Assembly: GCA_947626095.1 (NCBI GenBank)
Contig: CANQQV010000020.1
Location: forward strand, 1-27,395
Reading direction: 5' to 3'
DNA length: 27,395 nucleotides
DNA from: an uncultured Bacilli bacterium
GTDB taxonomy: Bacteria; Bacillota_I; Bacilli_A; RF39; UBA660
The notes under the pieces were generated by a model, which was not told where the DNA came from, did not search any database, and saw nothing but the letters and a program-made list of their open reading frames with translations. The translations under genes and the position numbers were made by a program. This document shows, in pieces, positions 4,460 through 27,002 of this stretch (position 1 is the stretch's first letter; each line of letters begins with the position of its first letter).

Positions 4460-5599
4460 TTATAATTTTAATCTTTTAATCATACTAGTATCAATGTCAG
4501 CGATTCTTTCTGGACATAATTCTATTTCTAAGTTTTTTTCGCCTTCATACATATATTTTTTAGTTTCTCTAACGATATGAATCGTTCCATCAGCAATTAA
4601 TGGTTGTAACATCGTTTCATAAACATCTTTATTTTTCTTTTTATCATTTAAACGATTATAAAAACAAGTATAATCGATAACAGTTTTACTACCATTCATC
4701 GAAAGAAGATATTCAACTGTTTGATAATCAACAGCACCCCATTCTCGAGCTGATAAGCCATGTAAATAATGCATCATATATTCTTTTTCTAATTCTGTTT
4801 TAACAGCTATTAACATATATTCTAAAAATTTAGTAAGTTCGTGATAACCTTTAGCTTCTTTAATTAATTTATCATAATGAGGTGCAAAGTTAATAGCACG
4901 GTTAAAGATAATATATGGATAGATATGTCGATTAAGTAAATACCACATAGCAACCGTTCGGCTAGTTCTTCCATTTATATCAAAGTATGGATGAATATAA
5001 ACAAAGTAGAAATGCATTATTTGAGATTTAATAAAATACTCAGTTTCATTGTTAAATCTTTCACCATTATTAACATATTCAAAGAATGAATCCATAAATT
5101 TAGGAACTTCTTCAAATGGTAAACCTTCATCAATAGTATCATCTAAACGACCATTTTGTAAGATATAAACTGGAGCTTCACGATACTTTTCACCCATTCT
5201 TCTGCGATCTTCAAAGCTTAATAATTTGTCACTTAAGATTTTATAAAGTTCAGCAACTGTTTCACTGTTGATACTCTTACCTTTTAAAATATATTGGTAA
5301 CCATGGTATAAATTAATGATACGGTGTGTTAATTCACTATTAGATGTTCTTTTAGCATCTTCGATAACTTGTTCTATTGTCGCTAACGAATCATTAATAC
5401 CTTCAACATTATTATTAGCTTTTAATTCGTGATTAAACATTACTTTTCGTGAAAAGCTTCGCGTATTCATAAATTCTTGTTGTTCTAAGAATTCTTCTAG
5501 TTCTCTAACTAAACTATCTAAATATTCACGATTGTATTTAAACAATCTCCCTGAAGCTGATTTTAAAGGTAGTGTTCCTTCTTTAAGATTAAGTTGCAT
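4460..5599 (-). CDS. Fic-domain protein
   Basis: Variant Fic motif HPYFDINGRTSR and N-terminal NNNVEG resembling the (S/T)xxxE(G/N) inhibitory motif. Start moved to ATG 5599 behind AGGGGTGA. Confidence 0.9.
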   Translation of the reverse strand: MQLNLKEGTLPLKSASGRLFKYNREYLDSLVRELEEFLEQQEFMNTRSFSRKVMFNHELKANNNVEGINDSLATIEQVIEDAKRTSNSELTHRIINLYHGYQYILKGKSINSETVAELYKILSDKLLSFEDRRRMGEKYREAPVYILQNGRLDDTIDEGLPFEEVPKFMDSFFEYVNNGERFNNETEYFIKSQIMHFYFVYIHPYFDINGRTSRTVAMWYLLNRHIYPYIIFNRAINFAPHYDKLIKEAKGYHELTKFLEYMLIAVKTELEKEYMMHYLHGLSAREWGAVDYQTVEYLLSMNGSKTVIDYTCFYNRLNDKKKNKDVYETMLQPLIADGTIHIVRETKKYMYEGEKNLEIELCPERIADIDTSMIKRLKL

Positions 5600-5637
5600 A
5601 TAATTCACCCCTAATTAATAGGTCATATTATATACAT

Positions 5638-5666
5638 AAAAAAAGAAATATTCAAATATTTCTTTT
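5638..5666 (-). terminator. AT-rich terminator hairpin after the paralog pair
   Basis: AAAAGAAATATT-(2 nt)-AATATTTCTTTT followed by extra T on the minus strand. Confidence 0.55.
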
Positions 5667-5670
5667 CGAT

Positions 5671-6279
5671 TTAGATATTTCCTTCTTCTATATAATTGTC
5701 ATTTTCTTTGAGATTAGCACATTTATTAACTATACTACAACTACCAACTAATTCTTTAGCGGCGATGGAGATGTTTCTACCACGACGATTACTTTGTTCT
5801 TTTAATCTATCTTCACCTGATCTAATCATGGTAATAACTCCACCTTTTTCATAATCATAAGCGATTTTCATATATTCATCATAATCAATCAATACTACTC
5901 CAGTATTATCAACTGCATCATAATAATTAAAATAAGGGCTTAAAGTTTTGTTATAAAGCATAAACTTTGTATCTTTACTAAAATATTCATAAAAATGAGT
6001 TAAGACAATATTTAAATCAATCCAATTTTCATCAAGATAATTAGTTTTCCAATAATCACCTGATGATATAAAATCGTATATCTCATCTAAAGTATATGGC
6101 GATTCTTTTAAATCCTCTTGGTTTTGATAATTATTGTTAGAATTTGCTTTTTCATTATTAGCCAAAACATTTACAGCAATTGATGAAACAATACTGAATG
6201 ATATCCCTAATAATAAAACTATTAATAAAGAAATAACTGCTTTTTTCATCGTTAATCTACTATTTTTTAACTTGTTCAT
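5671..6279 (-). CDS. Exported/membrane-anchored hypothetical protein, paralog 3 of 3
   Basis: N-terminal hydrophobic helix. Shared motifs YTLDEIYDFISSG, HFYEYFSKDTKFM, DYDEYMKI and Cx5C. Start overlaps the upstream stop (TAATG). Confidence 0.8.
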   Translation of the reverse strand: MNKLKNSRLTMKKAVISLLIVLLLGISFSIVSSIAVNVLANNEKANSNNNYQNQEDLKESPYTLDEIYDFISSGDYWKTNYLDENWIDLNIVLTHFYEYFSKDTKFMLYNKTLSPYFNYYDAVDNTGVVLIDYDEYMKIAYDYEKGGVITMIRSGEDRLKEQSNRRGRNISIAAKELVGSCSIVNKCANLKENDNYIEEGNI

Positions 6280-6902
6280 TAAACATTTTCTTCTTTCTCA
6301 TAATCTACATTTTCTTCGGGATTAGCACACCTATTAATTTCATTACACGCTCCTAAAACATCATGGGCAGCATTATTAACTTCATGTTCTCGATACTTCG
6401 GTAAAGGATATTGTGATACTTCTGTAAGATAAATACCGGTAGCGGCATCCCCTTTACCTTTCGTAATTTTCATGTATTCATCATAATCTATCATTATGGT
6501 ATGAATATCACTAGGATCAACATTTTCATATTCACCAAAGATATATCTCATTCTTTTATCATAAATCATAAACTTTGTATCTTTAGTAAAATAGTCATAA
6601 AAATTAATTATCACGTTATTATAGTCATACCATTCACGGCAATTTTCTGTAAAATAAGAAACTTTAAAATAAGTACCTGAAGATATAAAATCATATATCT
6701 CATCTAAAGTATAAGGCGATTTTTTAAGTTCTTCTGTTTCAATTTTATTTGGTTTAAGTTCTTCTTTATCATTTTCGGCAAAAACATTTATAACTAATGA
6801 TGAACCAAGACTAATTGATATTCCTAATAATAAGACAACAAATAATGAGACAACTACTTCTTTCATCTTTAATCTACTACTCTTTATCTTTTTCTTTATC
6901 AT
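6279..6902 (-). CDS. Exported/membrane-anchored hypothetical protein, paralog 2 of 3
   Basis: Same motif set as 5671-6279 and 8065-8571. Strong RBS AGAAAGGAG. Confidence 0.8.
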   Translation of the reverse strand: MIKKKIKSSRLKMKEVVVSLFVVLLLGISISLGSSLVINVFAENDKEELKPNKIETEELKKSPYTLDEIYDFISSGTYFKVSYFTENCREWYDYNNVIINFYDYFTKDTKFMIYDKRMRYIFGEYENVDPSDIHTIMIDYDEYMKITKGKGDAATGIYLTEVSQYPLPKYREHEVNNAAHDVLGACNEINRCANPEENVDYEKEENV

Positions 6903-6924
6903 ATTCTACTCCTTTCTTAAACCA

Positions 6925-7000
6925 AATATATTATTTAATATTTAAGTTAGCAACCTAGTTTAACTAGAGTTTTAGATTAATTAAATTCCAGTTTAACTAG
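6925..7000 (-). promoter_or_regulatory. Promoter with two palindromic operator boxes
   Basis: -35 TTGCTA (6948-6953), 17 bp, -10 TATATT (6925-6930). Boxes CTAGTTTAACTAG (6955-6967) and CCAGTTTAACTAG (6988-7000). Confidence 0.7.
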
Positions 7001-7005
7001 AATAA

Positions 7006-8037
7006 TTATTTTAACAAATTATATTCGTTAAAAAAGCTTTCTATAAGTTCTTTATTATTATTACATTTACCGATTAAACAAGATACTTTTTCGTTTTGAT
7101 AAGTAAAACCTTCTACTACAACACTATGGTATTCTACTTCATAATGCAAAATATCTTTATCTATTTGATAAACAGCGTTATATTTCATTTCATTTTCTTC
7201 TAAAGTATAAGAATATATCTTGTCAACGACGTTATATGCTAAAGTTAAATTATCTTTATTCTTAACATATGTATTATTATCACTTCTTACATATCCATTA
7301 TTATTAAGTAAAGTAATTATTCTATCAGAAACCATATTAGTTTTTAGTTTATTATTATTTATATAATATAATTTGTTATTAGAACTTTTTTCTTTAACTA
7401 TTAAATTAATATTATCTATTACTTCGCCATTTTCACTATAATGTTCTATTTCTAAATATAATTTATCTAAGTTATTTAAAATATCTTTGTTAAAGTATTC
7501 TAAATTATTTAAATTTTCTTCTATTTTGATCGATTTATAATTATTCTTAGTGGCAATAATATATTTCTTACTGCCATTTAAATAATATAGTGTAACTTTA
7601 TAATCATGATCTCCTTCTATATCATTTAAACTGAAAATTAATTCATTATTATCTATCATTAAATAGCTATCATTTATTACATATTTTTTATTGTCTAAAC
7701 TTATTGTATAAAATTTAAATTTATTATAATTATTTATAAAGTATGTAAGTAAGAATGCTATTAATAAAGTTAAGATTATCATTAAAATATAAAACATTAT
7801 TTTAATTATTTTATTATAATCTTTTTGTTTTTTATCAACTATTAAATTGATTAAATCAATATCTAAGTATTTAGATATATCTTTTATATAAGTTAAGTCA
7901 GGATAGTTTTTACCTGTTTCCCAATTAGAGATAGCTTTATCAGAAACCATTAATAGTTTAGCTAGTTCTTGTTGGGTTAGTTTTTTCTTCTTACGAGCAG
8001 CAGCAATTAGTTTACCAATATCTTCTTTTTCTTTCAT
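7006..8037 (-). CDS. Membrane-anchored XRE-family HTH regulator with a large C-terminal extracytoplasmic domain
   Basis: LTQQELAKLLMVSDKAISNWETGKNYPD (HTH_3), one TM helix (IMFYILMIILTLLIAFLLTYFI), ~240-aa C-terminal domain. Confidence 0.9.
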   Translation of the reverse strand: MKEKEDIGKLIAAARKKKKLTQQELAKLLMVSDKAISNWETGKNYPDLTYIKDISKYLDIDLINLIVDKKQKDYNKIIKIMFYILMIILTLLIAFLLTYFINNYNKFKFYTISLDNKKYVINDSYLMIDNNELIFSLNDIEGDHDYKVTLYYLNGSKKYIIATKNNYKSIKIEENLNNLEYFNKDILNNLDKLYLEIEHYSENGEVIDNINLIVKEKSSNNKLYYINNNKLKTNMVSDRIITLLNNNGYVRSDNNTYVKNKDNLTLAYNVVDKIYSYTLEENEMKYNAVYQIDKDILHYEVEYHSVVVEGFTYQNEKVSCLIGKCNNNKELIESFFNEYNLLK

Positions 8038-8064
8038 CAAAACCATTCCTTCAATAATCGTTTA

Positions 8065-12894: not shown

Positions 12895-12992
12895 TAATAT
12901 CACCTGTTTATTATTATACCAAAAATCTCTTATCTTTTCGTAAAATAATTGATTTTTTAATTAAAAAAACTATCTTTAAAAAAGATAATTTT

Positions 12993-14594: not shown

Positions 14595-17500
14595 TTAAAA
14601 TAAACTTAACTGATTACTTTCAGATAGATTATCTAAACAACCTAAGGCTTTTAGTTTTTCCATAGAACTAGTATTTACTTTACCTCTATCTCTTAAATCT
14701 TCCATAGAGATAAATGGTCCCCCTTCTCTGGCTTTAACAATGGCATCTGCGACGTTATCACCAAGGCCATCTAAGGCTCTAAATGGAATTATTAAACCTT
14801 TTTCATCTTCAGTGATGACAAATTTTTTACCATCACTTTTATCAACATCGATGTTTTTAAAGTAGAAACCTCTTAAGCACATTTCTAAGCAGATACATAA
14901 TGTTTCTCTAGTATCTATTTCTTTGTTACTAGCACTATTACCTTTGGCATCAATTTCATCGATTTTATTTCTAATGGCATCAGCACCTTTAATCATTGAT
15001 TCAATATCAAATTGATCACGTCTTATAGAAAGATAAGCACAGTAATACCATAATGGATGATGAACTTTAAACCAAGCGATTCTAAAGGCCGAGGTTACGT
15101 AAGCTGTTGCATGGGCTTTAGGGAACATGTATTTAATTTTACGACATGATTCGATATACCATTCAGGTATGTTAGCTTCACGCATAGCTGCAGCATGTTC
15201 AGCCCAAGTAGTTGGATCTTTAGAAGCTTTACCTTTACGTACGAATTCCATTATTTTAAAGGCTTTAGCTGGTTTCATTCCCCATGCAATTAAGTTAACC
15301 ATAATATCGTCACGACAACCGATGACGTTTTTAAATGGAACTTCGATAATACCTTCAGCATTAGGTGTACATAAATCACGAGCGTTACCTAACCATACGT
15401 CAGTACCATGAGATAAACCAGATATTTTTATCAGTTCGGCAAATGTTGTCGGTTTAGTTTCTTCAAGCATTCCTAGTAAGAATGAAGTACCAAACTCAGG
15501 AACACCTAAGGTACCAGTTGGACAATATTTACGACCATCTTTATCAACTAAACCTCTTAATTGGTATCTGTCAACGCCAAGAATTTCAGGGCCAGTAAAG
15601 ATTTTCATTGTATCTAAGTCACCTAAATCAATTTTAGTAACATCAATACCAGATATATCTTGAAGCATTCTTAATACGGTTGGATCATCGTGACCTAGTA
15701 TATCTAGTTTTAATAGGTCGGCATCAATAGCATGGTAATCAAAGTGAGTTGTACGCCATGCACTATTTGGATCATCAGCAGGATATTGGAAAGGCGTAAA
15801 ATCCCATACATCTTTATAACCAGGAACAACAACGATACCACCTGGATGTTGGCCAGTTGTTCTTTTAACACCGGTACAACCAACACTTATACGTTCTACT
15901 TCTGGTGTTCTAACAAAGGATTTGATAATACCCTTTTTCTTTAATTCATCTTTACTAGTAATTGGCATATTATAACTATCAGCTTCTATTTTTAAAGTAT
16001 TATATAAACTTTCTTCAAAGAAACCTTGAACATAACCATAAGCTGTCTTATCAGCAACAGTGCCAATTGTTCCAGCACGATAAACGTTATCAGTACCAAA
16101 TAGAACTTTAGTATATTCATGAGCTGAGGCTTGGTTATCACCAGAGAAGTTTAAGTCGATATCTGGTACTTTATCAGCATTAAATCCTAGGAATGTAGCA
16201 AATGGCATGTCATTACCTTCATGGATCATATCAGCGCCACATTCAGGACATTTTTTAGCTGGTAAGTCAAAACCTGATGGATAATCATCAACATAAGCTT
16301 TACCATTTTCATCTTTAAATTCAGAATGACAACACTTTGGACAGTAGTAATGAGCTGGAAGCCCATTACATTCAGTAATACCCATCATACTAGCAACGAA
16401 TGAGGAACCAACTGAACCACGGGAACCAACTAAGTACCCATCATCATTTGAGTGTTTAACTAATTTTTGCGCGATTAAGTAAATAACGTCGAAACCACCA
16501 CCGATGATACCACCTAAGGAAGCTTTAGCATTTTCGGTAGCTTCTTCATCAGTTAATTCAGTTTCAGCTTCTCTTTTTAATTTATCACTCATTAATTTAA
16601 CGACCCCATCGTATCCACTCATAATAACATTATGAACTTCAGATGAGAAAATATTATCTTTTTCTTCATCACTCATCTCTGGGTGCTCTAAAGCAATCTT
16701 TTCCGTTACTAAGCCCATTATTTTATCACCATAAAATTCTTGGGCGATACGTTCTTCAATGTTTCTTGGCAATGGATCACCATACATACTATGAGCTTTT
16801 GCAAAAACCATATCACGACATGTTTCTTGAGAATGTTCAATAATTGGAGAATATGGTTTATCAGGATATACGACTACTTCAATTTCTTCTAACATATCAA
16901 TTATTTTATTAGGATTAGTAATAACAATTTCTTTAATAAGGGCAGGATCATCTAAGAAAGCAAATTCATCTAACATTTCTTTAGTAGTTCTAAAGTATTG
17001 ATTAGGTATATGACCACTTAAAGCTGTTTCAGAATCATTATAATTATATTTTAAATCGTATACTTCATCTTTTTCTTTAATAATACCAGCTACCATTAAT
17101 TTTCTTAAAGCAGCTGAAACAGCTTTTAATTTTTCTGTTTCACTATCACGACCTTTGAAGGCATCTTCTTCAGGAATATTTTTAGAAGGAGAATAGATAG
17201 CGGCAAGATTAAGAGCAGTAATAGGAATTTTATTAATTTTCTTTAAGATATAAATGTATTTTAATACTTTTTCTTCTACTGAATTTAGTTCAACGCCTTG
17301 TTCACGACATTTGGTAATCGCATTTTTTAGATTATCATCATTATTATTTCGTTTAGCACTACCAGATAAGTAACGAGCTAAAGGATGTCTTCCTTTACCA
17401 GGAACATTTTGGTTAACAATTATTTCACGATATAAACGATCTTCTTTATTAATGTTATGAACATCACCAGTAGCCACAATTAATTTACCAGCTTCTTTAG

Positions 17501-20375
17501 CACATTTAATTATTTTCTTAAGACACTTATGTAAGTGTTCCATATTGTTGATATCATGACCTCTTAGTAAGTGAGTATAATTCTCAGGTGGTTGAACTTC
17601 GATGTAATCATAGAATTGCATAGCGGCAATTAAGTCTTCTTCACTTCTTGTTTCAGCGAGATAAAATATTTCACCATTTAAGCAGGCACTACCAAGTAGT
17701 AAACCTTCCCTATTTTCTTCGATTAGTTTACGTGGTATACGGGCATTTCGTTGTAAGAAGTTAGTATTAGCATAACTAACAATTTTAAATAAGTTTTTAA
17801 GACCTACTTTATTCTTGGCTATAAAGGTAATATGTTTAATATTATCATACATATTAGCAATATGTTCAGTATAGGTTTTACCAGGAATATTTTCATACAT
17901 TTGTACCCAATCTTCATGACACCATGGGAATTTCCAACGATATTCTTTGTTACCATATTTTTCAAAAGGATAACCTAAGTTTTCATCAACTTTTTCATCT
18001 TCTTCTGGTTTAAAGACATAGTTTTTTAAGGTTGATAAATCACCTATATGTTCTAATAATTTTGGATTGTTTTTAAAAGCTATTTCTTCTAGTAAACCAA
18101 GATTATTTAAATCATTTAAAGTTTTAACTCCTTTAATTTGACTTAACATTTTATTAAAGATATAAGCAGTATTTTCGGAGTCGACATCGGCGCCATGGTG
18201 TTGACCAACATAAACAACAATGGTTAAACTCTTTTCGCCAAAGTCATCGGTATATTTTATCTCAATATCATTTTCTGCAGGATGTAATTTTATATGTGGT
18301 TCAAAGTCGACTAAGTTAACGTTGGGAGCAACTTCAACTTCGATATTTATTTCATCGGTTTTGGCAGCTTTATGTAAGGTCTCTAAGTGATAGATATTAC
18401 GATATTTTTTTACTCTTTCTTCCGTTGTAACATCGATATCATAATATTCTTGTTTTTCGATTTTTAAAATATCTTCACCATCAACTAAGATTTTGGTAAA
18501 CGAAGCACCAATTTCTGGATCAATAATTGAACCACTGATACCTGTTTCATTAACCGTTTCATCATCTTCGTCATCAGACTCACCAGTATCAATACCATAG
18601 TATTTACCTAAAGCTTTTAAACTATGTTTTTTTAAGTCACGATTAATTACTCTTGATAGCATTAAGGTATCAATGATAGGATTTTCTAACTTACCTAAAT
18701 CATATTTATAGTAAGCCATGTCAATCATGTTTTTATCGAATCTAGCATTATGAGCTACTAAAGGAAGATTACCTATCCACTCTTTAAAGCGTTTAACAAC
18801 GTTTTCTTCATTATCAGCATCTTTAACATCATCATCGGAGATATCAGTAACTCTAGTTATTTGTTCATCAATGTGGTGGCCGGGATTAATAAGTTCGTCG
18901 AAACGATCAACTACTTCACCATTATGGATTTTAACACCACCAACTTCAATTAGAGAGTCACCTAAACCAGGATTAAAGCCTGTTGTTTCTGTATCGAATA
19001 CAACATAGGTATTACCTTCAACTTTTTCATCATTAGAATTAAAGCAAACGTTTAGGTATGACTCACACATTTCAAGTTCAGTGCCATAGCCGGCTTTGAA
19101 GAATTGTAAGTTCTTCTTTTCTTCTTCAGCCTGAGCAATCATTTTTTCCATTTCGGCAATGCCCTCTTCGTTGCCACTATTTTTAATTTCTTCTAAACTA
19201 GCTTTTAGTTCATCTATTTTAGCTTGGGCTTTTTTCTTTAAACCTTTATTAAAGGATGTTACTTCGCCAAAGACATGAGGAAATGACTGACAACAATCGT
19301 GATCAGTTATTGCAATACCACGATGGCCCCATTCCATGGCTTGTTTAACAAGTTTTACTTCATCGCAAACACCATCCATTTGACTCATCATAGTATGGGC
19401 ATGTAGTTCAACACGTTTTTCCTCTTCATTATCTAAACGTTTATATGATGGAATATTTTCTAATTTTTCATAACTTCTAAAATTAAAGACTAGGTCATTA
19501 GCAAAAGTATCATATCTTACTTGGCCTTTAAAAGTCCACCAAGTTCCATCTTTTAATTCTTTGGATTTAGCTAAAAAATCTTCTTCATCTTTAGCAAAGC
19601 ATTTAGCTAAAATACTAGAGGTATTATCACTTATTTTTAAAGTAATTAAATATAAATCTCGACCATCTTTGGTTTTTAATTGGTTAAATTCTGAACCAAA
19701 GATATAAGCTTCTAAATGAACATTGTTTTCTTCTTGGTCAATACTTTCAATGGAAACAATACCTTCTCTAGAATAGTTAACTTTTTTCTTTGGCGTCCAT
19801 TTACCATTACTATAGTTACTGACTGGTTCATCATAGAAATCAATTTCAATTTTTTTATTACGATCAGCTTCAATTTCATCTTGAATCTTCTTTTCATTTT
19901 CCTTATTAATGGCAGTTGTTATTTCCATTTCATAAAAACCTAGGTCAACTAAGCCATCAACTAAACCTTTAATCTCTTTTTGCAGCATATCATATTCTTC
20001 ACTTTTACTATCAAGTTCGATAATAATAAATTCATCATCAATAGAGATATTTTTATTTTCTAAAGAGACTAAAGATGGTCTTTTACTTATTAAATCACCA
20101 AGTAAAACCTTAAAAGCTTCTAAGATATCTTCATCTTGCATATCATCATAAATAAAGTTTATATGACAAGGATTTTTACCTTTAATACCTTTTTTAGCAC
20201 ATTTAGTAAGTTCTAATGTTGCAACAGGATTAATTGGTTTATCATTTTGAATAAAGACTTCAAAAGATTCTTTCTTTTTATTTAAAATAACACGGGAAAT
20301 ATTTGCAGTAGCAAAATCATCATTGACATCTTCAAAGCCAATACTATCAAAAAATTTTTTCATTTTATCTTGCAT
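14595..20375 (-). CDS. polC: DNA polymerase III PolC-type alpha subunit, unusually long (~1926 aa)
   Basis: OB domain, PHP (RVELHAHTMMSQMDG, AITDH), exonuclease (VFDTETTG, HNARFD), GSRGSVGSS, Zn finger, KVPDIDLNFSG, LLKLDILGHDDPT, KYMFPKAHA, C-terminal NQLSLF clamp-binding motif. Start ATG 20375 behind AGGTGA. Confidence 0.99.
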   Translation of the reverse strand: MQDKMKKFFDSIGFEDVNDDFATANISRVILNKKKESFEVFIQNDKPINPVATLELTKCAKKGIKGKNPCHINFIYDDMQDEDILEAFKVLLGDLISKRPSLVSLENKNISIDDEFIIIELDSKSEEYDMLQKEIKGLVDGLVDLGFYEMEITTAINKENEKKIQDEIEADRNKKIEIDFYDEPVSNYSNGKWTPKKKVNYSREGIVSIESIDQEENNVHLEAYIFGSEFNQLKTKDGRDLYLITLKISDNTSSILAKCFAKDEEDFLAKSKELKDGTWWTFKGQVRYDTFANDLVFNFRSYEKLENIPSYKRLDNEEEKRVELHAHTMMSQMDGVCDEVKLVKQAMEWGHRGIAITDHDCCQSFPHVFGEVTSFNKGLKKKAQAKIDELKASLEEIKNSGNEEGIAEMEKMIAQAEEEKKNLQFFKAGYGTELEMCESYLNVCFNSNDEKVEGNTYVVFDTETTGFNPGLGDSLIEVGGVKIHNGEVVDRFDELINPGHHIDEQITRVTDISDDDVKDADNEENVVKRFKEWIGNLPLVAHNARFDKNMIDMAYYKYDLGKLENPIIDTLMLSRVINRDLKKHSLKALGKYYGIDTGESDDEDDETVNETGISGSIIDPEIGASFTKILVDGEDILKIEKQEYYDIDVTTEERVKKYRNIYHLETLHKAAKTDEINIEVEVAPNVNLVDFEPHIKLHPAENDIEIKYTDDFGEKSLTIVVYVGQHHGADVDSENTAYIFNKMLSQIKGVKTLNDLNNLGLLEEIAFKNNPKLLEHIGDLSTLKNYVFKPEEDEKVDENLGYPFEKYGNKEYRWKFPWCHEDWVQMYENIPGKTYTEHIANMYDNIKHITFIAKNKVGLKNLFKIVSYANTNFLQRNARIPRKLIEENREGLLLGSACLNGEIFYLAETRSEEDLIAAMQFYDYIEVQPPENYTHLLRGHDINNMEHLHKCLKKIIKCAKEAGKLIVATGDVHNINKEDRLYREIIVNQNVPGKGRHPLARYLSGSAKRNNNDDNLKNAITKCREQGVELNSVEEKVLKYIYILKKINKIPITALNLAAIYSPSKNIPEEDAFKGRDSETEKLKAVSAALRKLMVAGIIKEKDEVYDLKYNYNDSETALSGHIPNQYFRTTKEMLDEFAFLDDPALIKEIVITNPNKIIDMLEEIEVVVYPDKPYSPIIEHSQETCRDMVFAKAHSMYGDPLPRNIEERIAQEFYGDKIMGLVTEKIALEHPEMSDEEKDNIFSSEVHNVIMSGYDGVVKLMSDKLKREAETELTDEEATENAKASLGGIIGGGFDVIYLIAQKLVKHSNDDGYLVGSRGSVGSSFVASMMGITECNGLPAHYYCPKCCHSEFKDENGKAYVDDYPSGFDLPAKKCPECGADMIHEGNDMPFATFLGFNADKVPDIDLNFSGDNQASAHEYTKVLFGTDNVYRAGTIGTVADKTAYGYVQGFFEESLYNTLKIEADSYNMPITSKDELKKKGIIKSFVRTPEVERISVGCTGVKRTTGQHPGGIVVVPGYKDVWDFTPFQYPADDPNSAWRTTHFDYHAIDADLLKLDILGHDDPTVLRMLQDISGIDVTKIDLGDLDTMKIFTGPEILGVDRYQLRGLVDKDGRKYCPTGTLGVPEFGTSFLLGMLEETKPTTFAELIKISGLSHGTDVWLGNARDLCTPNAEGIIEVPFKNVIGCRDDIMVNLIAWGMKPAKAFKIMEFVRKGKASKDPTTWAEHAAAMREANIPEWYIESCRKIKYMFPKAHATAYVTSAFRIAWFKVHHPLWYYCAYLSIRRDQFDIESMIKGADAIRNKIDEIDAKGNSASNKEIDTRETLCICLEMCLRGFYFKNIDVDKSDGKKFVITEDEKGLIIPFRALDGLGDNVADAIVKAREGGPFISMEDLRDRGKVNTSSMEKLKALGCLDNLSESNQLSLF

Positions 20376-20384
20376 ATACTTCAC

Positions 20385-23285
20385 CTACAATTTTTCTATA
20401 TTACTAACAACAATTTGATATTTATCGATTCTTCTAGTTACTTGTCCACGAACACGAACTAAATCATCTTTTTTAATTAAGTTTAAGAACTTATTATTTT
20501 TAGGGAAGATGATAAAGTCAGCACTACCAGTTTCATCACTACCAAGGATAAAACCCATATCTTCCCCATTCTTGGTTTTAATTTTTTTAATACTTCCTAT
20601 TATAACAACTAAATCGACATATTTATCAAAAAATGCACGCATATCTTTAATTTTCATAATACCTTCTTGATATTTACTAGCTGGATGATTGGTAACATAA
20701 AAACCAAAGGTATTTAGTTCACTAGCCATTAATTCATTTTCACTATACTCTTCAGCAGATTCATAATTTGGTTTCATAACTAGTGATTCATCTAAATCAC
20801 TACATAAAGTTGCATAGTCTAAAGCACTATCAATACTTGCATATAAAGTATGATGATTAATATTAAAATCTCTAAATGTATCTGCATCGATTAAAGATTC
20901 AAGGGTTTTACGATTAACACTTTTACCATAAGTTCTAGCAACAAAGTTAAAGAAATCAGTAAAACGACCATTAGTTGTTCGTTCGTTAATTATTTCACTG
21001 ACAGCTGAGCCACCAACATTATGAATAGCATTTAGTGGTAATAACAAAGCATTATTTTTAATAACATAATAATCCATACTAATATTAATATTTGGTTTAA
21101 ACACTAAAACATTTTTCTTTTTAGCTTCATCTATATATTCTTTAGTTTTAATATCACTACCAATACTCATATTAAGTAAGTTAGCAATAAAGAAAACAGG
21201 ATAATTAGCTTTTAAGTAAGCCATTTGGTAACCGATTAAAGCATAAGCTACAGAGTGAGCTTTATTAAAACCATAATCAGCGAATTTAATAATTAAATCA
21301 TATATTTCATTAGCTTTTTCTTTAGAATAGCCATTACTTATAGAACGATTAACAAAGACTTCTCTTTCTTTTTCCATAACGCTATGTTTCTTTTTACTCA
21401 TAGCTCTTCTAATATTATCAGCTTCAGCAAAGGTATAATTACCCATTTTAACTAAGACTTGCATTATTTGTTCTTGATAAATCATAATTCCATAAGTTGG
21501 CGCCAAAATATCTTTTAATGAATCATCAGAATATATAATTTTTTCTTTGCCATTCCTTCTTTTGATATAACTATCAATGTTGTGCATTGGTCCAGGACGG
21601 AATAAAGCTAAGGCAGCTACGATATCATCAAAGGTCGTAGCTTTTAATTTAGTTAGAAAGTTTTTCATTCCTGAACTTTCAAATTGAAAGATACCTTCGG
21701 TATCAACCGTATTAAAGATTTTAATTGTCGCTTTATCATCTAAAGGAATTTCGGCTAGATTAATGTCTTTACCAGTTTCATTTTTAATTAATTCTAAAAC
21801 ATTTTGAATAATAGTTAAGTTTCTTAAAGCTAAGAAATCCATTTTTAATAAGCCTAAATCTTCTAAGTATTCCATAGTAACTCCCGTAAGTAAGTCACCA
21901 CCATTTAAGCAGATGGGAATAACATCATCTAAGCTAACAGAAGAAATAACAACACCGGCAGCATGTGTACTAATATGTCTTTTTAAACCTTCTAATTTAA
22001 AACTAACTTGATAAACTTTTTTAATATCGGAATTATTGTTAACAAATTCTTTAACATATTTATTATTTAAATTATCTTTTAAACTTGCTTTAGGATCTAA
22101 TAAGTTACTTAAACGATCAATTAATTTAGGTTCGACTTCTAAGCATTTACCAACATCTCTTATTACTTGACGAGAACCAAGAGTACCAAAGGTCATAATA
22201 TTAGCAACTTTATCGTGACCATAACGTTCTTTGACATAGTTAATAACTTGGTCTCTTTTTGTATATTCAAAGTCAATGTCGATATCAGGCATGGTAATAC
22301 GTTCAGGATTTAAAAATCTTTCGAATAATAAATCGTATTTTAAAGGATCAACATTAGTAATACCAATTGAATAACTAACTAAAGAGCCAGCAGCTGAACC
22401 TCTACCAGGACCAACTAAGATATTATTTTTTTTAGCAAATTTAACATAGTCATAAACAATTAAGAAGTAATCCACAAAACCCATTTTATTGATAACATTA
22501 AGTTCCATTAATAAACGATCACTATATTCTTTAGTAATATGACCATTTAATCTTTTTTCTAAGCCTTTTTTACATAAAGAACATAGATAAGCATATGAAT
22601 CTTTGATATTTAAATCATAATGAGGAATATAGTTGCCATCTTTAGGAATAACTAAGTCGATTAAGTTACTAAATTCTGCAGTTGTTTTAGCATCATCATT
22701 AGCTATTTCTTTAGCTAAATAAGCATCACTATATTTAGTTATATCTTCTTTTTCGCCAGTTTCAATTTCTCTTAAAATGCCAATATATTTAATATCTTCC
22801 CAAGCAAAAGCACAAATTTCATTTAGGTATAAAACATTATTACTTAAGATTAAAGCATTACTTTTTTCGTAGTCATTACTATAGCCAAGATATAGTTCTT
22901 TAGCTATCTTTTTTATTTCATCATATATTTCAATACTTTGATATGGAAGTACACATAAAATATCTTTGATATAACTTTTTAAGTCGATATAATTAAGGTC
23001 TCTACCCTGCACAATTGTATTTATTTTAAGTAAATTTTGATAACCAGAATAATTCTTAGCATATAAATAAACAGTATTGTTTCCTATTTTAATTATTAAA
23101 CCAATTATAGGTTTAATTTTGTTATTTAGGCATTCGTTATAAAAACACATGCTACCAAATAAGTTTTCATCAAGTAAGCCACAGGCAGGTATATTATGTT
23201 CAACTAAGTATTTAATTAAATCTGGTATTTTAATTAAACTTTTAAGTAGTGAATAATCACTTTTTATACCTAAAGGAATAAACAT
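20385..23285 (-). CDS. dnaE: DNA polymerase III alpha subunit DnaE
   Basis: GPGRGSAAGSLV, FERFLNPER, MPDIDIDF, LLKMDFLAL, IFQFES, YGFNKAH, C-terminal OB fold. PHP metal ligands degenerate. Start ATG 23285. Confidence 0.98.
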   Translation of the reverse strand: MFIPLGIKSDYSLLKSLIKIPDLIKYLVEHNIPACGLLDENLFGSMCFYNECLNNKIKPIIGLIIKIGNNTVYLYAKNYSGYQNLLKINTIVQGRDLNYIDLKSYIKDILCVLPYQSIEIYDEIKKIAKELYLGYSNDYEKSNALILSNNVLYLNEICAFAWEDIKYIGILREIETGEKEDITKYSDAYLAKEIANDDAKTTAEFSNLIDLVIPKDGNYIPHYDLNIKDSYAYLCSLCKKGLEKRLNGHITKEYSDRLLMELNVINKMGFVDYFLIVYDYVKFAKKNNILVGPGRGSAAGSLVSYSIGITNVDPLKYDLLFERFLNPERITMPDIDIDFEYTKRDQVINYVKERYGHDKVANIMTFGTLGSRQVIRDVGKCLEVEPKLIDRLSNLLDPKASLKDNLNNKYVKEFVNNNSDIKKVYQVSFKLEGLKRHISTHAAGVVISSVSLDDVIPICLNGGDLLTGVTMEYLEDLGLLKMDFLALRNLTIIQNVLELIKNETGKDINLAEIPLDDKATIKIFNTVDTEGIFQFESSGMKNFLTKLKATTFDDIVAALALFRPGPMHNIDSYIKRRNGKEKIIYSDDSLKDILAPTYGIMIYQEQIMQVLVKMGNYTFAEADNIRRAMSKKKHSVMEKEREVFVNRSISNGYSKEKANEIYDLIIKFADYGFNKAHSVAYALIGYQMAYLKANYPVFFIANLLNMSIGSDIKTKEYIDEAKKKNVLVFKPNINISMDYYVIKNNALLLPLNAIHNVGGSAVSEIINERTTNGRFTDFFNFVARTYGKSVNRKTLESLIDADTFRDFNINHHTLYASIDSALDYATLCSDLDESLVMKPNYESAEEYSENELMASELNTFGFYVTNHPASKYQEGIMKIKDMRAFFDKYVDLVVIIGSIKKIKTKNGEDMGFILGSDETGSADFIIFPKNNKFLNLIKKDDLVRVRGQVTRRIDKYQIVVSNIEKL

Positions 23286-23561
23286 AATATTACCACCCTT
23301 CATGTTAATAATTATATCAAATTAATAGGATAAATAAAACATATATTCGGATAGTTTTTAAAAATAAAAAGAAACTGTTAATAACTTGGCTTGGTTTTAT
23401 AAATTAGATGTTGTTAAATGAAGATTTTTTATATAATCTTTGATGGTGAAAATAATAATTTCGAAGAAAAAGCCAAAAGATAGTTATTTTTTTCTTTAGA
23501 TGTTTTTAGGCTTTAGGAATTAATTCCTTTATAAAAAGGAAAAATAAACGAAAAATGGCCA

Positions 23562-23587
23562 TAAAAAAAGTTCTTGTGACAAGAACT
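23562..23587 (-). terminator. Minus-strand terminator-like hairpin overlapping the -35 of the peptide promoter
   Basis: Perfect 9-bp inverted repeat AGTTCTTGT-n-ACAAGAACT (23569-23587) followed by a T run on the minus strand. Confidence 0.6.
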
Positions 23588-23602
23588 ATTCATTTTTATA
23601 AT
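23574..23602 (+). promoter_or_regulatory. Sigma-A promoter of the small-peptide mRNA
   Basis: TTGTGA (23574-23579), 17 bp, TATAAT (23597-23602). Predicted start at ~23609-23611, the first base of the long-range repeat. Confidence 0.65.
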
Positions 23603-23679
23603 AGTACATTGGATACATTTGAAATATATCAGATGTTTGCCCTTTCAATTATCAAAAGATAAAAGAAAGGGGTGATATT

Positions 23680-23757
23680 ATGACAAGAAGAGAAGCTTCT
23701 CTATATTTCATTATATTACTATTATTCTTTATAGTAATCACCTTACTATTTGGATAA
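23680..23757 (+). CDS. 25-aa hydrophobic peptide, candidate type I toxin (MTRREASLYFIILLLFFIVITLLFG)
   Basis: Below the ORF-track cutoff. Very strong RBS AGAAAGGGGTGA, single TM-length hydrophobic run, double TAA stop. Confidence 0.75.
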   Translation: MTRREASLYFIILLLFFIVITLLFG

Positions 23758-23758
23758 T

Positions 23759-23868
23759 AAAAACATCCGATCTCAACATAAGTTGATTTCAGATGACATC
23801 CAAAGGGAATACATCTGATTCGAGCAATCAAATGTATCCTTTTTATTTTATGAAGTTTCCTTCATCTA
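23759..23868 (-). ncRNA. Candidate antisense (antitoxin) sRNA, ~110 nt
   Basis: Extended -10 TGTTATAAT (23874-23882, minus strand) with no ORF downstream. Terminator hairpin CATCTGA..TCAAC-TTAT-GTTGA..TCGGATG (23764-23795) followed by TTTTT. Confidence 0.55.
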
Positions 23869-23902
23869 TAGATATTATAACATAAAATGATAATTATAAT
23901 AA

Positions 23903-25393
23903 TTATTTCTTTAGTGTTTGTTCATTAATTTTCTTTTCATAAACGTTTTTTAAGACTCTAGCTAGTTTAACTCGAGACATATCAAGATCTAAGGAATTAG
24001 CTGCAAAGAAATCACTAACTAAGTTATGGGCTTGATCTTGATCCACTGTAAGACATACACCAAAGATGGCATTATATAGTTGTAGTAGTTCATTTTGAGT
24101 ATCTAATAACTTAGAGTTAATTAGAATATTAGTAAGAGAATCCATATCAAAGGCAAAGCGATGAGGTTGTTCATAATACTCATTTTTGCGAACATTATAT
24201 AAGGCTTCTAAGAAGGAATGAACGTCAATTGGCTGATTAGCTAAATCTGCTACCTCATACATATTTTCGATAACTTCTTCCATATTTAAATTAGTTGAGG
24301 AAAAAGCCATAAATTCTTTACCAGCAAAGCGTAGCAGCCAATTAATATGATCATTTACTATCCTAGTGGCAATTTTATAATGAGGTGGATGATTATTAAG
24401 CATTTCATCTTCAAATCTCATTATTTGGTCAGTATCAAAATATTTATAGGTTATGTAAGTAAATTTATCTTTTTCATTAGGAATTAATTGATTATAAGTT
24501 TTAGCAAAATACAAATAAGAATTTAAGAAACTAAGACTATTTTCATTTCTTTTAGAATCAAAAGTTGGATCAAAAAAGTATAAACCATTAATATTGTATT
24601 TATCATCTTTTAAATAAACTAAGCTACGAGCATGAGATTCATCTGATTGATTAACATCTAAAATAAAATCAATACATTTAAAACCAAGTTGTTCTAAAAT
24701 GGTGTTAAATAATCTGACGTATCCTAAGCAAACAATCTTATCACCTAATAAGACGGAGGTTAAATCTCTTGATTCATAGTATTTTTGATTATCATCTTCC
24801 TTAACATATACTCTATCTCTAATTAAATCATAAACATGAATTAAAATTTCTAAAGGACTATAGTTATAACATTTGATTTTGGTAACTATTTCATTAACAA
24901 TAGCAATTGTTTTTTCATACTCCGTTATAGTGATTGGATGACTATTACCTTGAATCTTAATTAAAACATTATACTTTTGAAGGTCAATATTCTTTTTTAA
25001 AGCAGCTAACTGATTTAAATCGATATCTAATACATTACCGATAACTATCTTTTTATTAGCTAACTCAGGATTAGTTGCTAAATAAGTAGAAATTTCAGCA
25101 AATTCACCATATATCTCTATTGAATCAGTAAGTAAATAATCACGTAAAACAGAATTCTTACTTAAATGTTTTAATAATTTTTTATCTTCTTTATCACCTA
25201 AAATACTATATTTTATAAAATCGTTTGCACTCTTTTGAAGATTAGAAGAGTTAATAATGTTACTTAATGGTTCATTTACATCAGTATAAACGTCTAAATT
25301 ATACTCATTTTCAGAACAACCAACAGTTATTTGTAATTTATCATTTTCTTCAATTGGATTAGTTGTAAAATAAATATTAACTAAAGCCTTCAT
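23903..25393 (-). CDS. Transglutaminase-like (Cys-His-Asp) domain protein
   Basis: IVCLGYVRLF...HARSLVYL...FFDPTFD triad pattern. No signal peptide. Confidence 0.75.
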   Translation of the reverse strand: MKALVNIYFTTNPIEENDKLQITVGCSENEYNLDVYTDVNEPLSNIINSSNLQKSANDFIKYSILGDKEDKKLLKHLSKNSVLRDYLLTDSIEIYGEFAEISTYLATNPELANKKIVIGNVLDIDLNQLAALKKNIDLQKYNVLIKIQGNSHPITITEYEKTIAIVNEIVTKIKCYNYSPLEILIHVYDLIRDRVYVKEDDNQKYYESRDLTSVLLGDKIVCLGYVRLFNTILEQLGFKCIDFILDVNQSDESHARSLVYLKDDKYNINGLYFFDPTFDSKRNENSLSFLNSYLYFAKTYNQLIPNEKDKFTYITYKYFDTDQIMRFEDEMLNNHPPHYKIATRIVNDHINWLLRFAGKEFMAFSSTNLNMEEVIENMYEVADLANQPIDVHSFLEALYNVRKNEYYEQPHRFAFDMDSLTNILINSKLLDTQNELLQLYNAIFGVCLTVDQDQAHNLVSDFFAANSLDLDMSRVKLARVLKNVYEKKINEQTLKK

Positions 25394-25490: not shown

Positions 25491-27002
25491 TTAAATCATA
25501 GATTTTTTATTTATTTGGAAATATACTAAAGTTCCTAGTGAAATTATACCGATTATTAAACCAATTACAAATACATCTGATGTATTAGGTAATATATCAT
25601 TACGCATATTTACAAATTTGGCTACCATTTCTTTGCCTGCTTCAATTGTTCCTTTTTCATTTTCTGCATCAACATCAAATTTTTTGACACTTTCTTCAGT
25701 TATTTCATATGTTATTCCAGCAGGAAGATTAACTGCTGTTTTTGATTCATCATGTTTTAATGTAAATGTTGCAATACCATCTTTAAATGTCATTTCGCCA
25801 TATTCGCCATTAATACTTTTATCACTTAAGGTAACTGTAAAATTAAAATCAGTTTGTTTATCTTTATCTTTACCAGAAACAATCTTTCTAACTGTTAAAT
25901 CACCAGTTTTTAATTCTGGATTTTGTTCGGAATTTGTTTTAGGAGCGTTTTTGATGGTAATAACAATTTCTTTACCATTAGCATTTTCTATCGTACCAGA
26001 ATACTTATTACCTTCTTGGATTAAACCTTCAGCATTAGATGAGAATTCAGCCTTATAGTCTTCGCCATCTTCCTCGATGATTTCAACATAGATTTTGTTA
26101 TCGTCACCATAATAGTTTTCATAGCAAGCTGACCAACTATCAGAATCGTTTAACTCGATAATATTACCTTTAGTTTCTTTAGATAATGTTACTTCTTGAT
26201 ACGTATCAAAGCCACTTTTGTCTTCTTTTAGAGTTCCTGCTTTATTATTTCCTAAGATATTGACACCAACTTTTAAATGAACTTCCCAATTGTCTAAAGT
26301 ATCTGGTTCAAATTCCTTTTTGATTTTTAAAGAAGTATTGGTTCCCGTTGTGACAACAACATCACCGGATACACTTCTACTAACAATACAATTATTAGTT
26401 GAAGGATTAGTATAATCGCCTTCTGTATGAGTAATATTGATAGTTACTGGATCTGTTCCTTCACCAACTGTAATAGTATTTTGCTTACTATAATCATTAC
26501 TGTTAATAGTAACTATAAGTTTCCCATCATTATTTCTAATATATATAGATATAGGTTGAATAAAGGAAACATTTTCTGCGGATAATTGAGATTCATAGAG
26601 AAAATAATAACCTTCTGGAAGATTGTTGATATTTAAAATACCTTCGCTATTAGTATTCATCTGGGTAGCTTGTGCTTCCTTTTCAGTTATTTTACTAGAA
26701 AAAGTATAGGTTCCATTACTGCCATTAAGTAGTAGAAATTCACTTATATTGCCACTACCTTCTGGTTGCTTAGCAACTTTAAAACCGACATTAGCTAGCG
26801 GTGCTTTGTCACCTTCATCATTGTTTTGAGATTCTACTTTAAGTTGTAGATTAACACTTTCTGCTCCAGTAATTTCGATAGGATTTGTTCCTGCTGCTTT
26901 TGACCTAGTAGCGGTGGTTAAGATAATTAAGCAAGTAAGAAAAAATAAAATACCACCAATTATGATTTTACGGTTATTATATAAATATTTTTCTTCTTTC
27001 AT
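25491..27002 (-). CDS. Cell-surface pilin/adhesin-like protein (SpaA/Cna-B-type Ig folds, LPxTG-like anchor)
   Basis: Signal peptide, PLANVGFKV and NLPEGYYFLYES (E-box-like), C-terminal domain GDLTVRKIV...NLPAGITYEITEE...FVN, then LPNTS + TM + KK tail. Confidence 0.82.
   Translation of the reverse strand: MKEEKYLYNNRKIIIGGILFFLTCLIILTTATRSKAAGTNPIEITGAESVNLQLKVESQNNDEGDKAPLANVGFKVAKQPEGSGNISEFLLLNGSNGTYTFSSKITEKEAQATQMNTNSEGILNINNLPEGYYFLYESQLSAENVSFIQPISIYIRNNDGKLIVTINSNDYSKQNTITVGEGTDPVTINITHTEGDYTNPSTNNCIVSRSVSGDVVVTTGTNTSLKIKKEFEPDTLDNWEVHLKVGVNILGNNKAGTLKEDKSGFDTYQEVTLSKETKGNIIELNDSDSWSACYENYYGDDNKIYVEIIEEDGEDYKAEFSSNAEGLIQEGNKYSGTIENANGKEIVITIKNAPKTNSEQNPELKTGDLTVRKIVSGKDKDKQTDFNFTVTLSDKSINGEYGEMTFKDGIATFTLKHDESKTAVNLPAGITYEITEESVKKFDVDAENEKGTIEAGKEMVAKFVNMRNDILPNTSDVFVIGLIIGIISLGTLVYFQINKKSMI

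Follow-up and report, generated by a model that had tools for sequence, protein, structure and literature searches.

The stretch of DNA analysed here (the window) comprises 27,395 nt of contig CANQQV010000020.1, from the genome assembly of an uncultured Bacilli bacterium (GCA_947626095.1). The 599-nt gap between its dnaE gene and a 496-aa open reading frame (ORF; orf496), at 23304-23902, carries a real, conserved and unannotated sense/antisense small-ORF module, in which a plus-strand gene for a 25-residue peptide faces a candidate minus-strand RNA gene; the family is new and its architecture is known. The sequence features of the module, their conservation and their covariation were observed directly. 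We consider it likely that the locus is a type I toxin-antitoxin (TA)-like module of an undescribed family, built like bsrG/SR4, a type I TA system of the Bacillus subtilis prophage SPbeta; the TA label is suggested by the anatomy and by an asymmetric pattern of loss. A preliminary description had read the locus as either a type I TA or a small membrane protein under regulation, and at the level of sequence this reading is supported by the conservation and the bsrG/SR4-like architecture. The plus-strand terminator, the 12-bp 5'/3' helix, the second helix, the anti-Shine-Dalgarno (anti-SD) sequence and the 5' hairpin of the antisense RNA (HP1) did not appear in that description.

Related copies were sought by blastn, nhmmer and a covariance model of the antisense RNA (R1) in 80 loci obtained from a DnaE search of genome contigs, each covering dnaE ± 10 kb (1.45 Mb in total). 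Nine copies were found in 7 of the 80 loci. Six were full (L002, L034, L017, L018, L035 and L061) and three antisense-only (L003, and second sites in L034 and L002, designated L034b and L002b). Counts of seven full loci and of ten antisense copies given below include the window. All ten were recovered with R1, which found no other true copy in the 1.45 Mb. Peptide-like tblastn matches in L005 and L058 were judged not to be homologues.

Peptide gene and structure of its mRNA

The plus-strand promoter, the very strong SD and the 25-codon hydrophobic ORF named in the preliminary description were all present (Table 1). The SD core with its spacing to ATG occurred once in the window, against 0.04 expected. 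The mRNA was predicted to start at or near G23611. A TTGnnn-17/18-TATAAT promoter was found 6-8 nt ahead of the first base of the 5' helix in 6 of the 7 full loci, L017 having AAGTAT; sigma-70-like sites as such were at chance density in 22800-24600 (14 found, 14.1 expected).

Table 1. Coordinates of the module and of the features around it (positions in the window)
Feature	Position	Strand	Remarks
Peptide mRNA promoter	23574-23602	+	-35 TTGTGA 23574-23579, 17-nt spacer, -10 TATAAT 23597-23602
Predicted peptide (toxin-like) mRNA	23611-23849	+	~240 nt, highly structured
Helix H1	23611-23622 with 23828-23839	+	perfect, 12 bp; 3' strand directly before U-run 23840-23849
Helix H2	23628-23636 with 23811-23819	+	second long-distance helix
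Anti-SD CCCTTTC	23640-23646	+	pairs with 23665-23671 in minimum free energy (MFE) and centroid structures
SD GAAAGGGGTGAT	23665-23676	+	3 nt from ATG
Peptide ORF MTRREASLYFIILLLFFIVITLLFG	23680-23757	+	25 codons and stop; reads as single-pass membrane peptide
Stem-loop common to both strands	23764-23795	both	in 3' untranslated region (UTR) of mRNA; HP3 terminator hairpin of antisense RNA
SD-like AAAGGG in 3' UTR	23802-23807	+	alternative partner of anti-SD (inverted repeat)
Plus-strand terminator	23806-23849	+	hairpin 23806-23839, U-run 23840-23849
Predicted antisense RNA	23754-23867	minus	~110 nt; HP1, A-rich linker, HP2, HP3, U-run
Extended -10 TGTTATAAT	23874-23882	minus	antisense promoter
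HP1 (5' hairpin)	23865-23850	minus	conserved; not complementary to mRNA, beyond mRNA terminator
HP2	23839-23806	minus	opposite plus-strand terminator hairpin
HP3 and U-run	23795-23764 and 23763-23754	minus	terminator of antisense RNA
Palindromic hairpin	23562-23587 (hairpin 23569-23587)	both	perfect, 8 bp, T-runs on both sides; overlaps -35 of peptide promoter
dnaE	20385-23303	minus	flanks the gap on one side
orf496 (496 aa)	23903-25393	minus	other flank; no Pfam or NCBIfam match

All seven full loci kept the ATG, a G-rich SD and a reading frame of 25-33 codons, features whose lack of conservation in homologous loci the preliminary description had named as a ground for giving up its reading. 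The encoded peptides shared an M-x-[KR]-rich N-terminus followed by ~20 hydrophobic residues. When a library of 1.84 billion representative proteins was searched with the peptide profile, 12 proteins were found at E ≤ 0.001, 11 of which (P0002-P0012) were 47-83 aa long and ended in the 25-residue peptide (consensus MTKRE-x-S-x-F-IIILLLFF-IVITLLF-K); the exact 25-codon length was found in 3 loci and in 11 library proteins. The N-terminal parts of these 11 proteins look like the 5' UTR and SD translated in frame, and on their sequences would be gene-caller artefacts. An ORF of the same extended kind (61 aa) was found at 9548-9733 of L002. An upstream TTG or ATG opens a frame that runs through the 5' UTR and SD into the peptide ORF. 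The twelfth match, P0001 (1374 aa, 23 stretches), was a repetitive false match and was rejected. A homology search with P0002 returned five proteins on contigs of 554-1419 nt. The charged C-terminal tail reported as missing in the preliminary description is indeed absent from the window copy, which ends in G, but the statement does not extend to the family, in which K or R is the last residue of 13 of 18 peptides and two more have K or KK just ahead of a short tail.

The plus RNA 23608-23852 folded with an MFE of -76.2 kcal/mol (z = -8.7), and 0 of 200 shuffled sequences folded as well. The arms of the plus-strand terminator are the 3' strands of H2 and H1, and the other DNA strand of the same segment is antisense HP2. 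MAFFT alignment of the seven mRNAs was too poor beyond three close copies, and single folds and a matrix of cognate and non-cognate duplexes were used instead. In single folds the same architecture was obtained for 6 of the 7 mRNAs, and in L061 the 5'-3' helix was an alternative to the MFE structure. Cognate 5'/3' duplexes reached -21.6 to -36.4 kcal/mol (z between -5.6 and -11.7; in no case did any of 200 shuffles do as well), whereas 5'/3' duplexes between subtypes reached -5.7 to -20.9 kcal/mol only; the two ends of the mRNA therefore co-vary. The SD was predicted to be paired in all seven full loci (probability unpaired 0.00-0.28), and pairing of the anti-SD with its alternative 3'-UTR partner appeared in the 5'/3' duplex and in the MFE structure of L002. 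Positions 23611-23636 resemble antisense hairpin 2, and R1 matched 23605-23681 on the plus strand (24.6 bits, E = 0.11) and scored the 5' UTR of L002 at 25.2 bits. Among the window, L002 and L034, identity was 89-92% in the 5' UTR, 82-89% in the 3' UTR and 65-79% in the ORF; the dnaE genes of the window and L034 were 62% identical in nucleotides.

Antisense RNA and its related copies

The minus-strand hairpin and T-run terminator of the preliminary description corresponds to HP3 and its U-run. The extended -10 proposed there as the antisense promoter was found in place, and a TGn-extended -10 lies 6-8 nt before HP1 in 9 of the 10 copies; because of this conservation the promoter is supported, although within the window alone such a site occurs at chance frequency. 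The minus RNA 23870-23750 folded with z = -6.5, and all 10 copies folded into three hairpins and a U-run. The comparison across related metagenome-assembled genomes (MAGs) that had been proposed as a check gave an antisense unit with compensatory changes in 10 of 10 copies. In MAFFT and RNAalifold analysis of the ten copies the hairpins fell out of register (consensus -0.77 kcal/mol), and the R1 alignment was used instead. In this nine-copy alignment, 94.5% of cells were paired (80.2% in shuffles), and both sides had changed in 21 of 32 pairs, compared with 10.6 ± 2.1 pairs for shuffles and 1-7 for slid controls. Such changes on both sides affected 11 of 12 pairs in HP3 and 8 of 14 in HP2.

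The strand was resolved as minus on three grounds. G-U cells, which fit the minus strand only, numbered 36 against 5 A-C cells; HP1 lies beyond the mRNA terminator and was more stable on the minus strand in 10 of 10 copies; and the minus strand was likewise the more stable one for HP2 in 7 of 10 copies and for HP3 in 6 of 10. Complementarity between the antisense RNA and the mRNA extends over ~90 nt, as follows from their overlap. With orphan-versus-relative and within-group pairs set aside, cognate sense/antisense duplexes ranged from -150 to -172 kcal/mol, against -29 to -62 kcal/mol between specificity groups, and the duplex matrix gave at least 5 pairing-specificity groups.

The peptide half, with its promoter -10, 5' UTR and ORF, was lost in 3 of the 9 homologous copies and the antisense half in none. 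L003 kept the upstream hairpin and the whole antisense unit and had no -10, 5' UTR, SD or ORF; its orphan antisense RNA fits window-type mRNAs (-114 to -129 kcal/mol). L034b and L002b are what remains of other subtypes, with the antisense unit only, and the L034b antisense RNA matches the L017 type but not the mRNA resident in L034. The locus was absent upstream of dnaE in L001, L004 and L005, and no second copy (paralogue) was found in the window.

Matches to TGNTATAAT in the window lie at 1117-1125, 2577-2585, 12913-12921, 20599-20607, 23311-23319 and 23874-23882, all on the minus strand. Four of the six are within ~15 nt upstream of tRNA-Thr, a YceD-like ORF, polA or dnaE, as counted from the tRNA or ORF-finder start. 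The number of matches equals chance, but their positions suggest real promoters in most cases, and ORF starts set too far upstream in several.

Comparison with known systems, proposed mechanism and alternatives

At gathering thresholds, a search of the whole window against Rfam 15 returned tRNA only, and at E ≤ 10 on 23300-23950 it returned five chance-level matches, none to an antitoxin family (BsrG/SR4 and TxpA/RatA included). None of the seven peptides reached any Pfam or NCBIfam cut-off (Fst, Hok, Ibs, Ldr, TisB and others), the best match to a toxin model being HokA for L035 only (E = 0.12, 12.4 bits, cut-off 89), and they matched no PHROGs family. The preliminary description, which had not recognised the peptide family, is borne out on this point. 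None of the 11 library relatives matched Pfam. Searches of plasmids and phages by blastn and tblastn gave only a 31-nt chance match to a Ligilactobacillus plasmid (E = 0.007), the ESM Atlas gave no usable match to the 33-aa L061 peptide, and a narrow literature search combining "type I toxin-antitoxin" with "Erysipelotrichaceae" found no paper.

Comparisons with described systems draw on three papers (PMC3834814, PMC8594479 and PMC6562991). Type I toxin mRNAs are characterised there as 150-400 nt long and encoding a small, usually hydrophobic protein of 20-60 aa (PMC8594479); the predicted mRNA here is ~240 nt and its ORF 25 aa. At the sequence level the locus also has a cis-encoded gene for a complementary antisense RNA with its own promoter and terminator. 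Cis elements expected to restrain translation, namely anti-SD/SD pairing and 5'-3' long-distance pairing, were found in all seven full loci, and the whole agrees with the structural descriptors used for T1TAdb (PMC8594479).

The convergent 3'-overlap layout likened to bsrG/SR4 in the preliminary description agrees with the architecture given by Jahn & Brantl 2013 (PMC3834814). In the probed bsrG mRNA, a helix joins nt 1-35 to nt 232-262 and another, of 4 bp, contains the SD, and SR4 is complementary to SL3, the 3' half of the long helix and the terminator, its first stem-loop being non-complementary (PMC3834814). Here too a long 5'-3' helix is combined with an SD in a short helix, a convergent antisense RNA covers a 3' stem-loop, the 3' half of the helix and the terminator, and the first antisense stem-loop has no complementarity to the mRNA. 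The two systems differ in that searches of Rfam (E ≤ 10), NCBIfam and Pfam revealed no relation in sequence, and in size, the mRNA having ~240 rather than 294-296 nt, the antisense RNA ~110 rather than ~180 nt and the peptide 25 rather than 38 aa. Unlike in bsrG, the 3' strand of the closing helix doubles here as the 3' arm of the terminator hairpin, and no further terminator follows it. The antisense RNA stops at the stop codon, and the SD was unchanged in silico when the 3' UTR was occupied, both unlike bsrG/SR4. An SR4-like effect on translation was considered and had no in-silico support, SD accessibility being the same with the 3' UTR masked.

In the txpA/RatA pair of B. subtilis, TxpA has 59 aa and RatA 222 nt. 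This pair likewise shows convergent 3' overlap and a sequestered SD, and antisense-promoted, RNase III-dependent decay has been proposed for it (PMC3834814, PMC6562991). In the TxpA/RatA family, however, the antisense RNA overlaps the ORF as well (PMC8594479), whereas here it stops at the stop codon, and no Rfam match was found. With fst/RNAII (par of pAD1) and SprA1/SprA1as the locus shares a small hydrophobic peptide, convergent RNAs with a common terminator region and an antisense RNA that does not overlap the ORF (PMC8594479). In those systems the interaction takes place outside the overlap (PMC8594479), in fst/RNAII by way of direct repeats close to the 5' end (PMC3834814). In the present locus the complementarity resides in the overlap itself, and no Pfam or NCBIfam toxin match was obtained. 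As in hok/Sok and aapA1/IsoA1, where a 5'-3' long-distance interaction and SD sequestration hold the full-length toxin mRNA inert (PMC8594479), both elements are present. The antisense RNAs of those systems, however, act on the mRNA's 5' portion, and the one here would act on the 3' partner of the long-distance helix.

From these features we infer transcription of both strands, control through mRNA decay and toxicity of the peptide. The plus strand would give a ~240-nt mRNA for a 25-residue single-pass membrane peptide, in which the first 26 nt would pair with the last 30 nt before the U-run and so close the molecule. The upstream anti-SD would lock the strong SD in a helix, leaving the mRNA stable and poorly translated. 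From its own extended -10 promoter the minus strand would give a ~110-nt RNA with a non-complementary 5' hairpin followed by two hairpins fully complementary to the mRNA 3' UTR; the terminator and the 3' strands of both closing helices would fall within this complementarity. On binding, this RNA would displace the 5' end of the mRNA and produce a ~90-bp duplex, which RNase III would cut and exonucleases would clear, so that no peptide would be made; cleavage of complete duplexes by RNase III is a rule stated in PMC6562991.

A bolder extension, which we put forward tentatively and hold to be rather unlikely, is that of an old dnaE-linked module in which three RNAs compete for one site. The 5' end of the mRNA would then be a built-in copy of antitoxin hairpin 2. 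Both it and the antisense RNA would bind the same 3'-UTR terminator region, and because of this the ratio of antisense RNA to closed mRNA would decide between a stable silent mRNA and decay. The orphan antisense genes (L003, L034b and L002b) would provide standing immunity against incoming toxins of matching specificity group.

Several observations weigh against the TA reading or parts of it. The plus-strand terminator hairpin is weak (-7.0 kcal/mol). Masking the antisense-covered 3' UTR in silico left the probability of an unpaired SD unchanged (0.00-0.34). The window contains the TGNTATAAT pattern 6 times, with 4.9 ± 2.0 expected, and the antisense promoter is not significant alone. The covariation alignment was fitted to the R1 structure, and pairing is thereby favoured. 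Among the window, L002 and L034, ORF substitutions showed no third-position bias (positions 1/2/3: 6/6/7, 11/7/8 and 10/1/5) and non-synonymous codon changes exceeded synonymous ones (8 to 6, 13 to 6 and 9 to 5), which together indicate weak selection on the exact peptide sequence. Eight of the nine copies lie within ~1.7 kb of dnaE (7 upstream and 1 downstream, L035 being ~8.5 kb away), and in all copies the peptide mRNA runs opposite to dnaE, unlike freely mobile TA systems, in a sample confined to dnaE ± 10 kb. This linkage spans genomes whose DnaE is only 44-61% identical to that of the window.

Such linkage and constant orientation across divergent genomes would suit a resident gene better than a selfish module, and the window peptide has no basic C-terminus. 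Both points agree with a small membrane protein that does no harm and has its mRNA tuned by an antisense RNA in cis, an arrangement of the same anatomy with no TA relation, which all of the structural evidence fits equally well. We nevertheless think this explanation unlikely. If the peptide is harmful, loss of the peptide half with retention of the antisense half is expected, and this is the direction seen in 3 of 9 copies, with the reverse in none. The presence of the locus varies among close relatives, and SD sequestration combined with 5'-3' closure forms a double lock typical of toxin mRNAs (PMC8594479). It is improbable, to a clearly greater degree, that the transcripts function as RNAs only, for example as a sense/antisense pair of small RNAs with an untranslated ORF. 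The UTRs are more conserved than the ORF, whose changes lack third-position bias, and the SD is predicted to be buried in every copy, as this explanation would have it; but the start codon, the strong and well-spaced SD and the frame are kept in all seven full loci, the 25-codon length is shared exactly by 3 loci and 11 library proteins with a conserved MTKRE...K pattern, and the SD-plus-ATG arrangement has a chance expectation of 0.04 per window.

The perfect 12-bp inverted repeat, with arms 205 nt apart, and the variable presence of the locus recall a miniature inverted-repeat transposable element (MITE) with the arms as terminal inverted repeats, and the minus-strand RNA has dnaE orientation and, as counted for this alternative, lies upstream of dnaE in 8 of 9 homologous copies, as a leader or attenuator RNA of dnaE might. 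Either origin seems very improbable to us. The arms differ between subtypes yet stay complementary with G-U pairs, which points to selection at the RNA level and not to transposase sites, and the window holds no second copy of such an element. As to a leader, dnaE has its own extended -10 (23311-23319), a hairpin and T-run lie in between (23587-23562), and one full copy (L034) is downstream of dnaE. We give hardly any credence to the notion that there is no gene pair at all, only a terminator region that works in both directions between convergent or tandem genes, with hexamers that resemble promoters by chance in AT-rich DNA. Promoter-like sites are indeed at chance density, and the hairpins with T-runs could end the orf496 transcript. 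The unit is, however, conserved where orf496 is absent, and orf496 relatives were found only in L004, L005, L008 and L009, all of which lack the unit; HP1 lies outside any terminator and yet is conserved, with G-U pairs fitting the minus strand only; and 9 of 10 copies retain the extended -10, while the full loci retain the ORF and SD.

On the TA reading, uncultured gut Bacilli of low GC content near Candidatus Coprovivens gain a type I-like module with this family. Type I systems are under-annotated, since gene callers do not accept peptides as short as theirs, and the family illustrates this directly, being present in the protein library only as 47-83-aa ORFs. The natural variation among copies amounts to a set of compensatory mutations for the antisense hairpins and the 5'-3' helix, and the toxin-less copies offer a way to ask whether orphan antitoxins protect against related toxins.

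Genomic setting and further observations

The window is of chromosomal, Firmicute-like character and carries polC, dnaE, polA, fpg and the gene of a sortase-type surface protein; its GC content is ~20-36%. The nearest DnaE relatives were found in MAGs titled uncultured Bacilli and Candidatus Coprovivens (top identity 89%). The region upstream of dnaE is variable. Relatives of orf496 with 37-39% identity occupy the same place in L004, L005, L008 and L009 and are not found in L002. A SpaA/DUF7601 surface protein with a sortase-type C-terminus (25491-27002) adjoins orf496.

The palindrome at 23562-23587 scored as a terminator on either strand and was present in L002 and L003 but missing at the L034 copy, which is not syntenic. 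One possible role is to shield the region of the dnaE promoter from read-through on the minus strand. A LexA-type operator within it (23569-23587) was considered by eye against the consensus and was dropped.

The ORF finder placed the dnaE start at 23303, and that ATG is only 7 nt past the extended -10 TGATATAAT (23319-23311). The codons that follow it spell the SD-like GAAGGGTGG ahead of a second ATG at 23285, and tblastn alignments of dnaE to its relatives start at residue 1, 2 or 7; the true start is probably 23285. The adjacent polC (14595-20384) encodes 1929 aa. The ~340 residues that separate its PHP match (aa 845-917) from the polymerase core (aa 1263 onwards) had no Pfam match even at E ≤ 1, and no intein or endonuclease domain was seen. 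Elsewhere in the window, a Fic/DOC-domain protein (4460-5608) is followed by two ORFs without a Pfam match (5671-6902) and by a 346-aa HTH_3 protein (7006-8046), and the genes at 4460-8046 could form another toxin-antitoxin or defence cluster.

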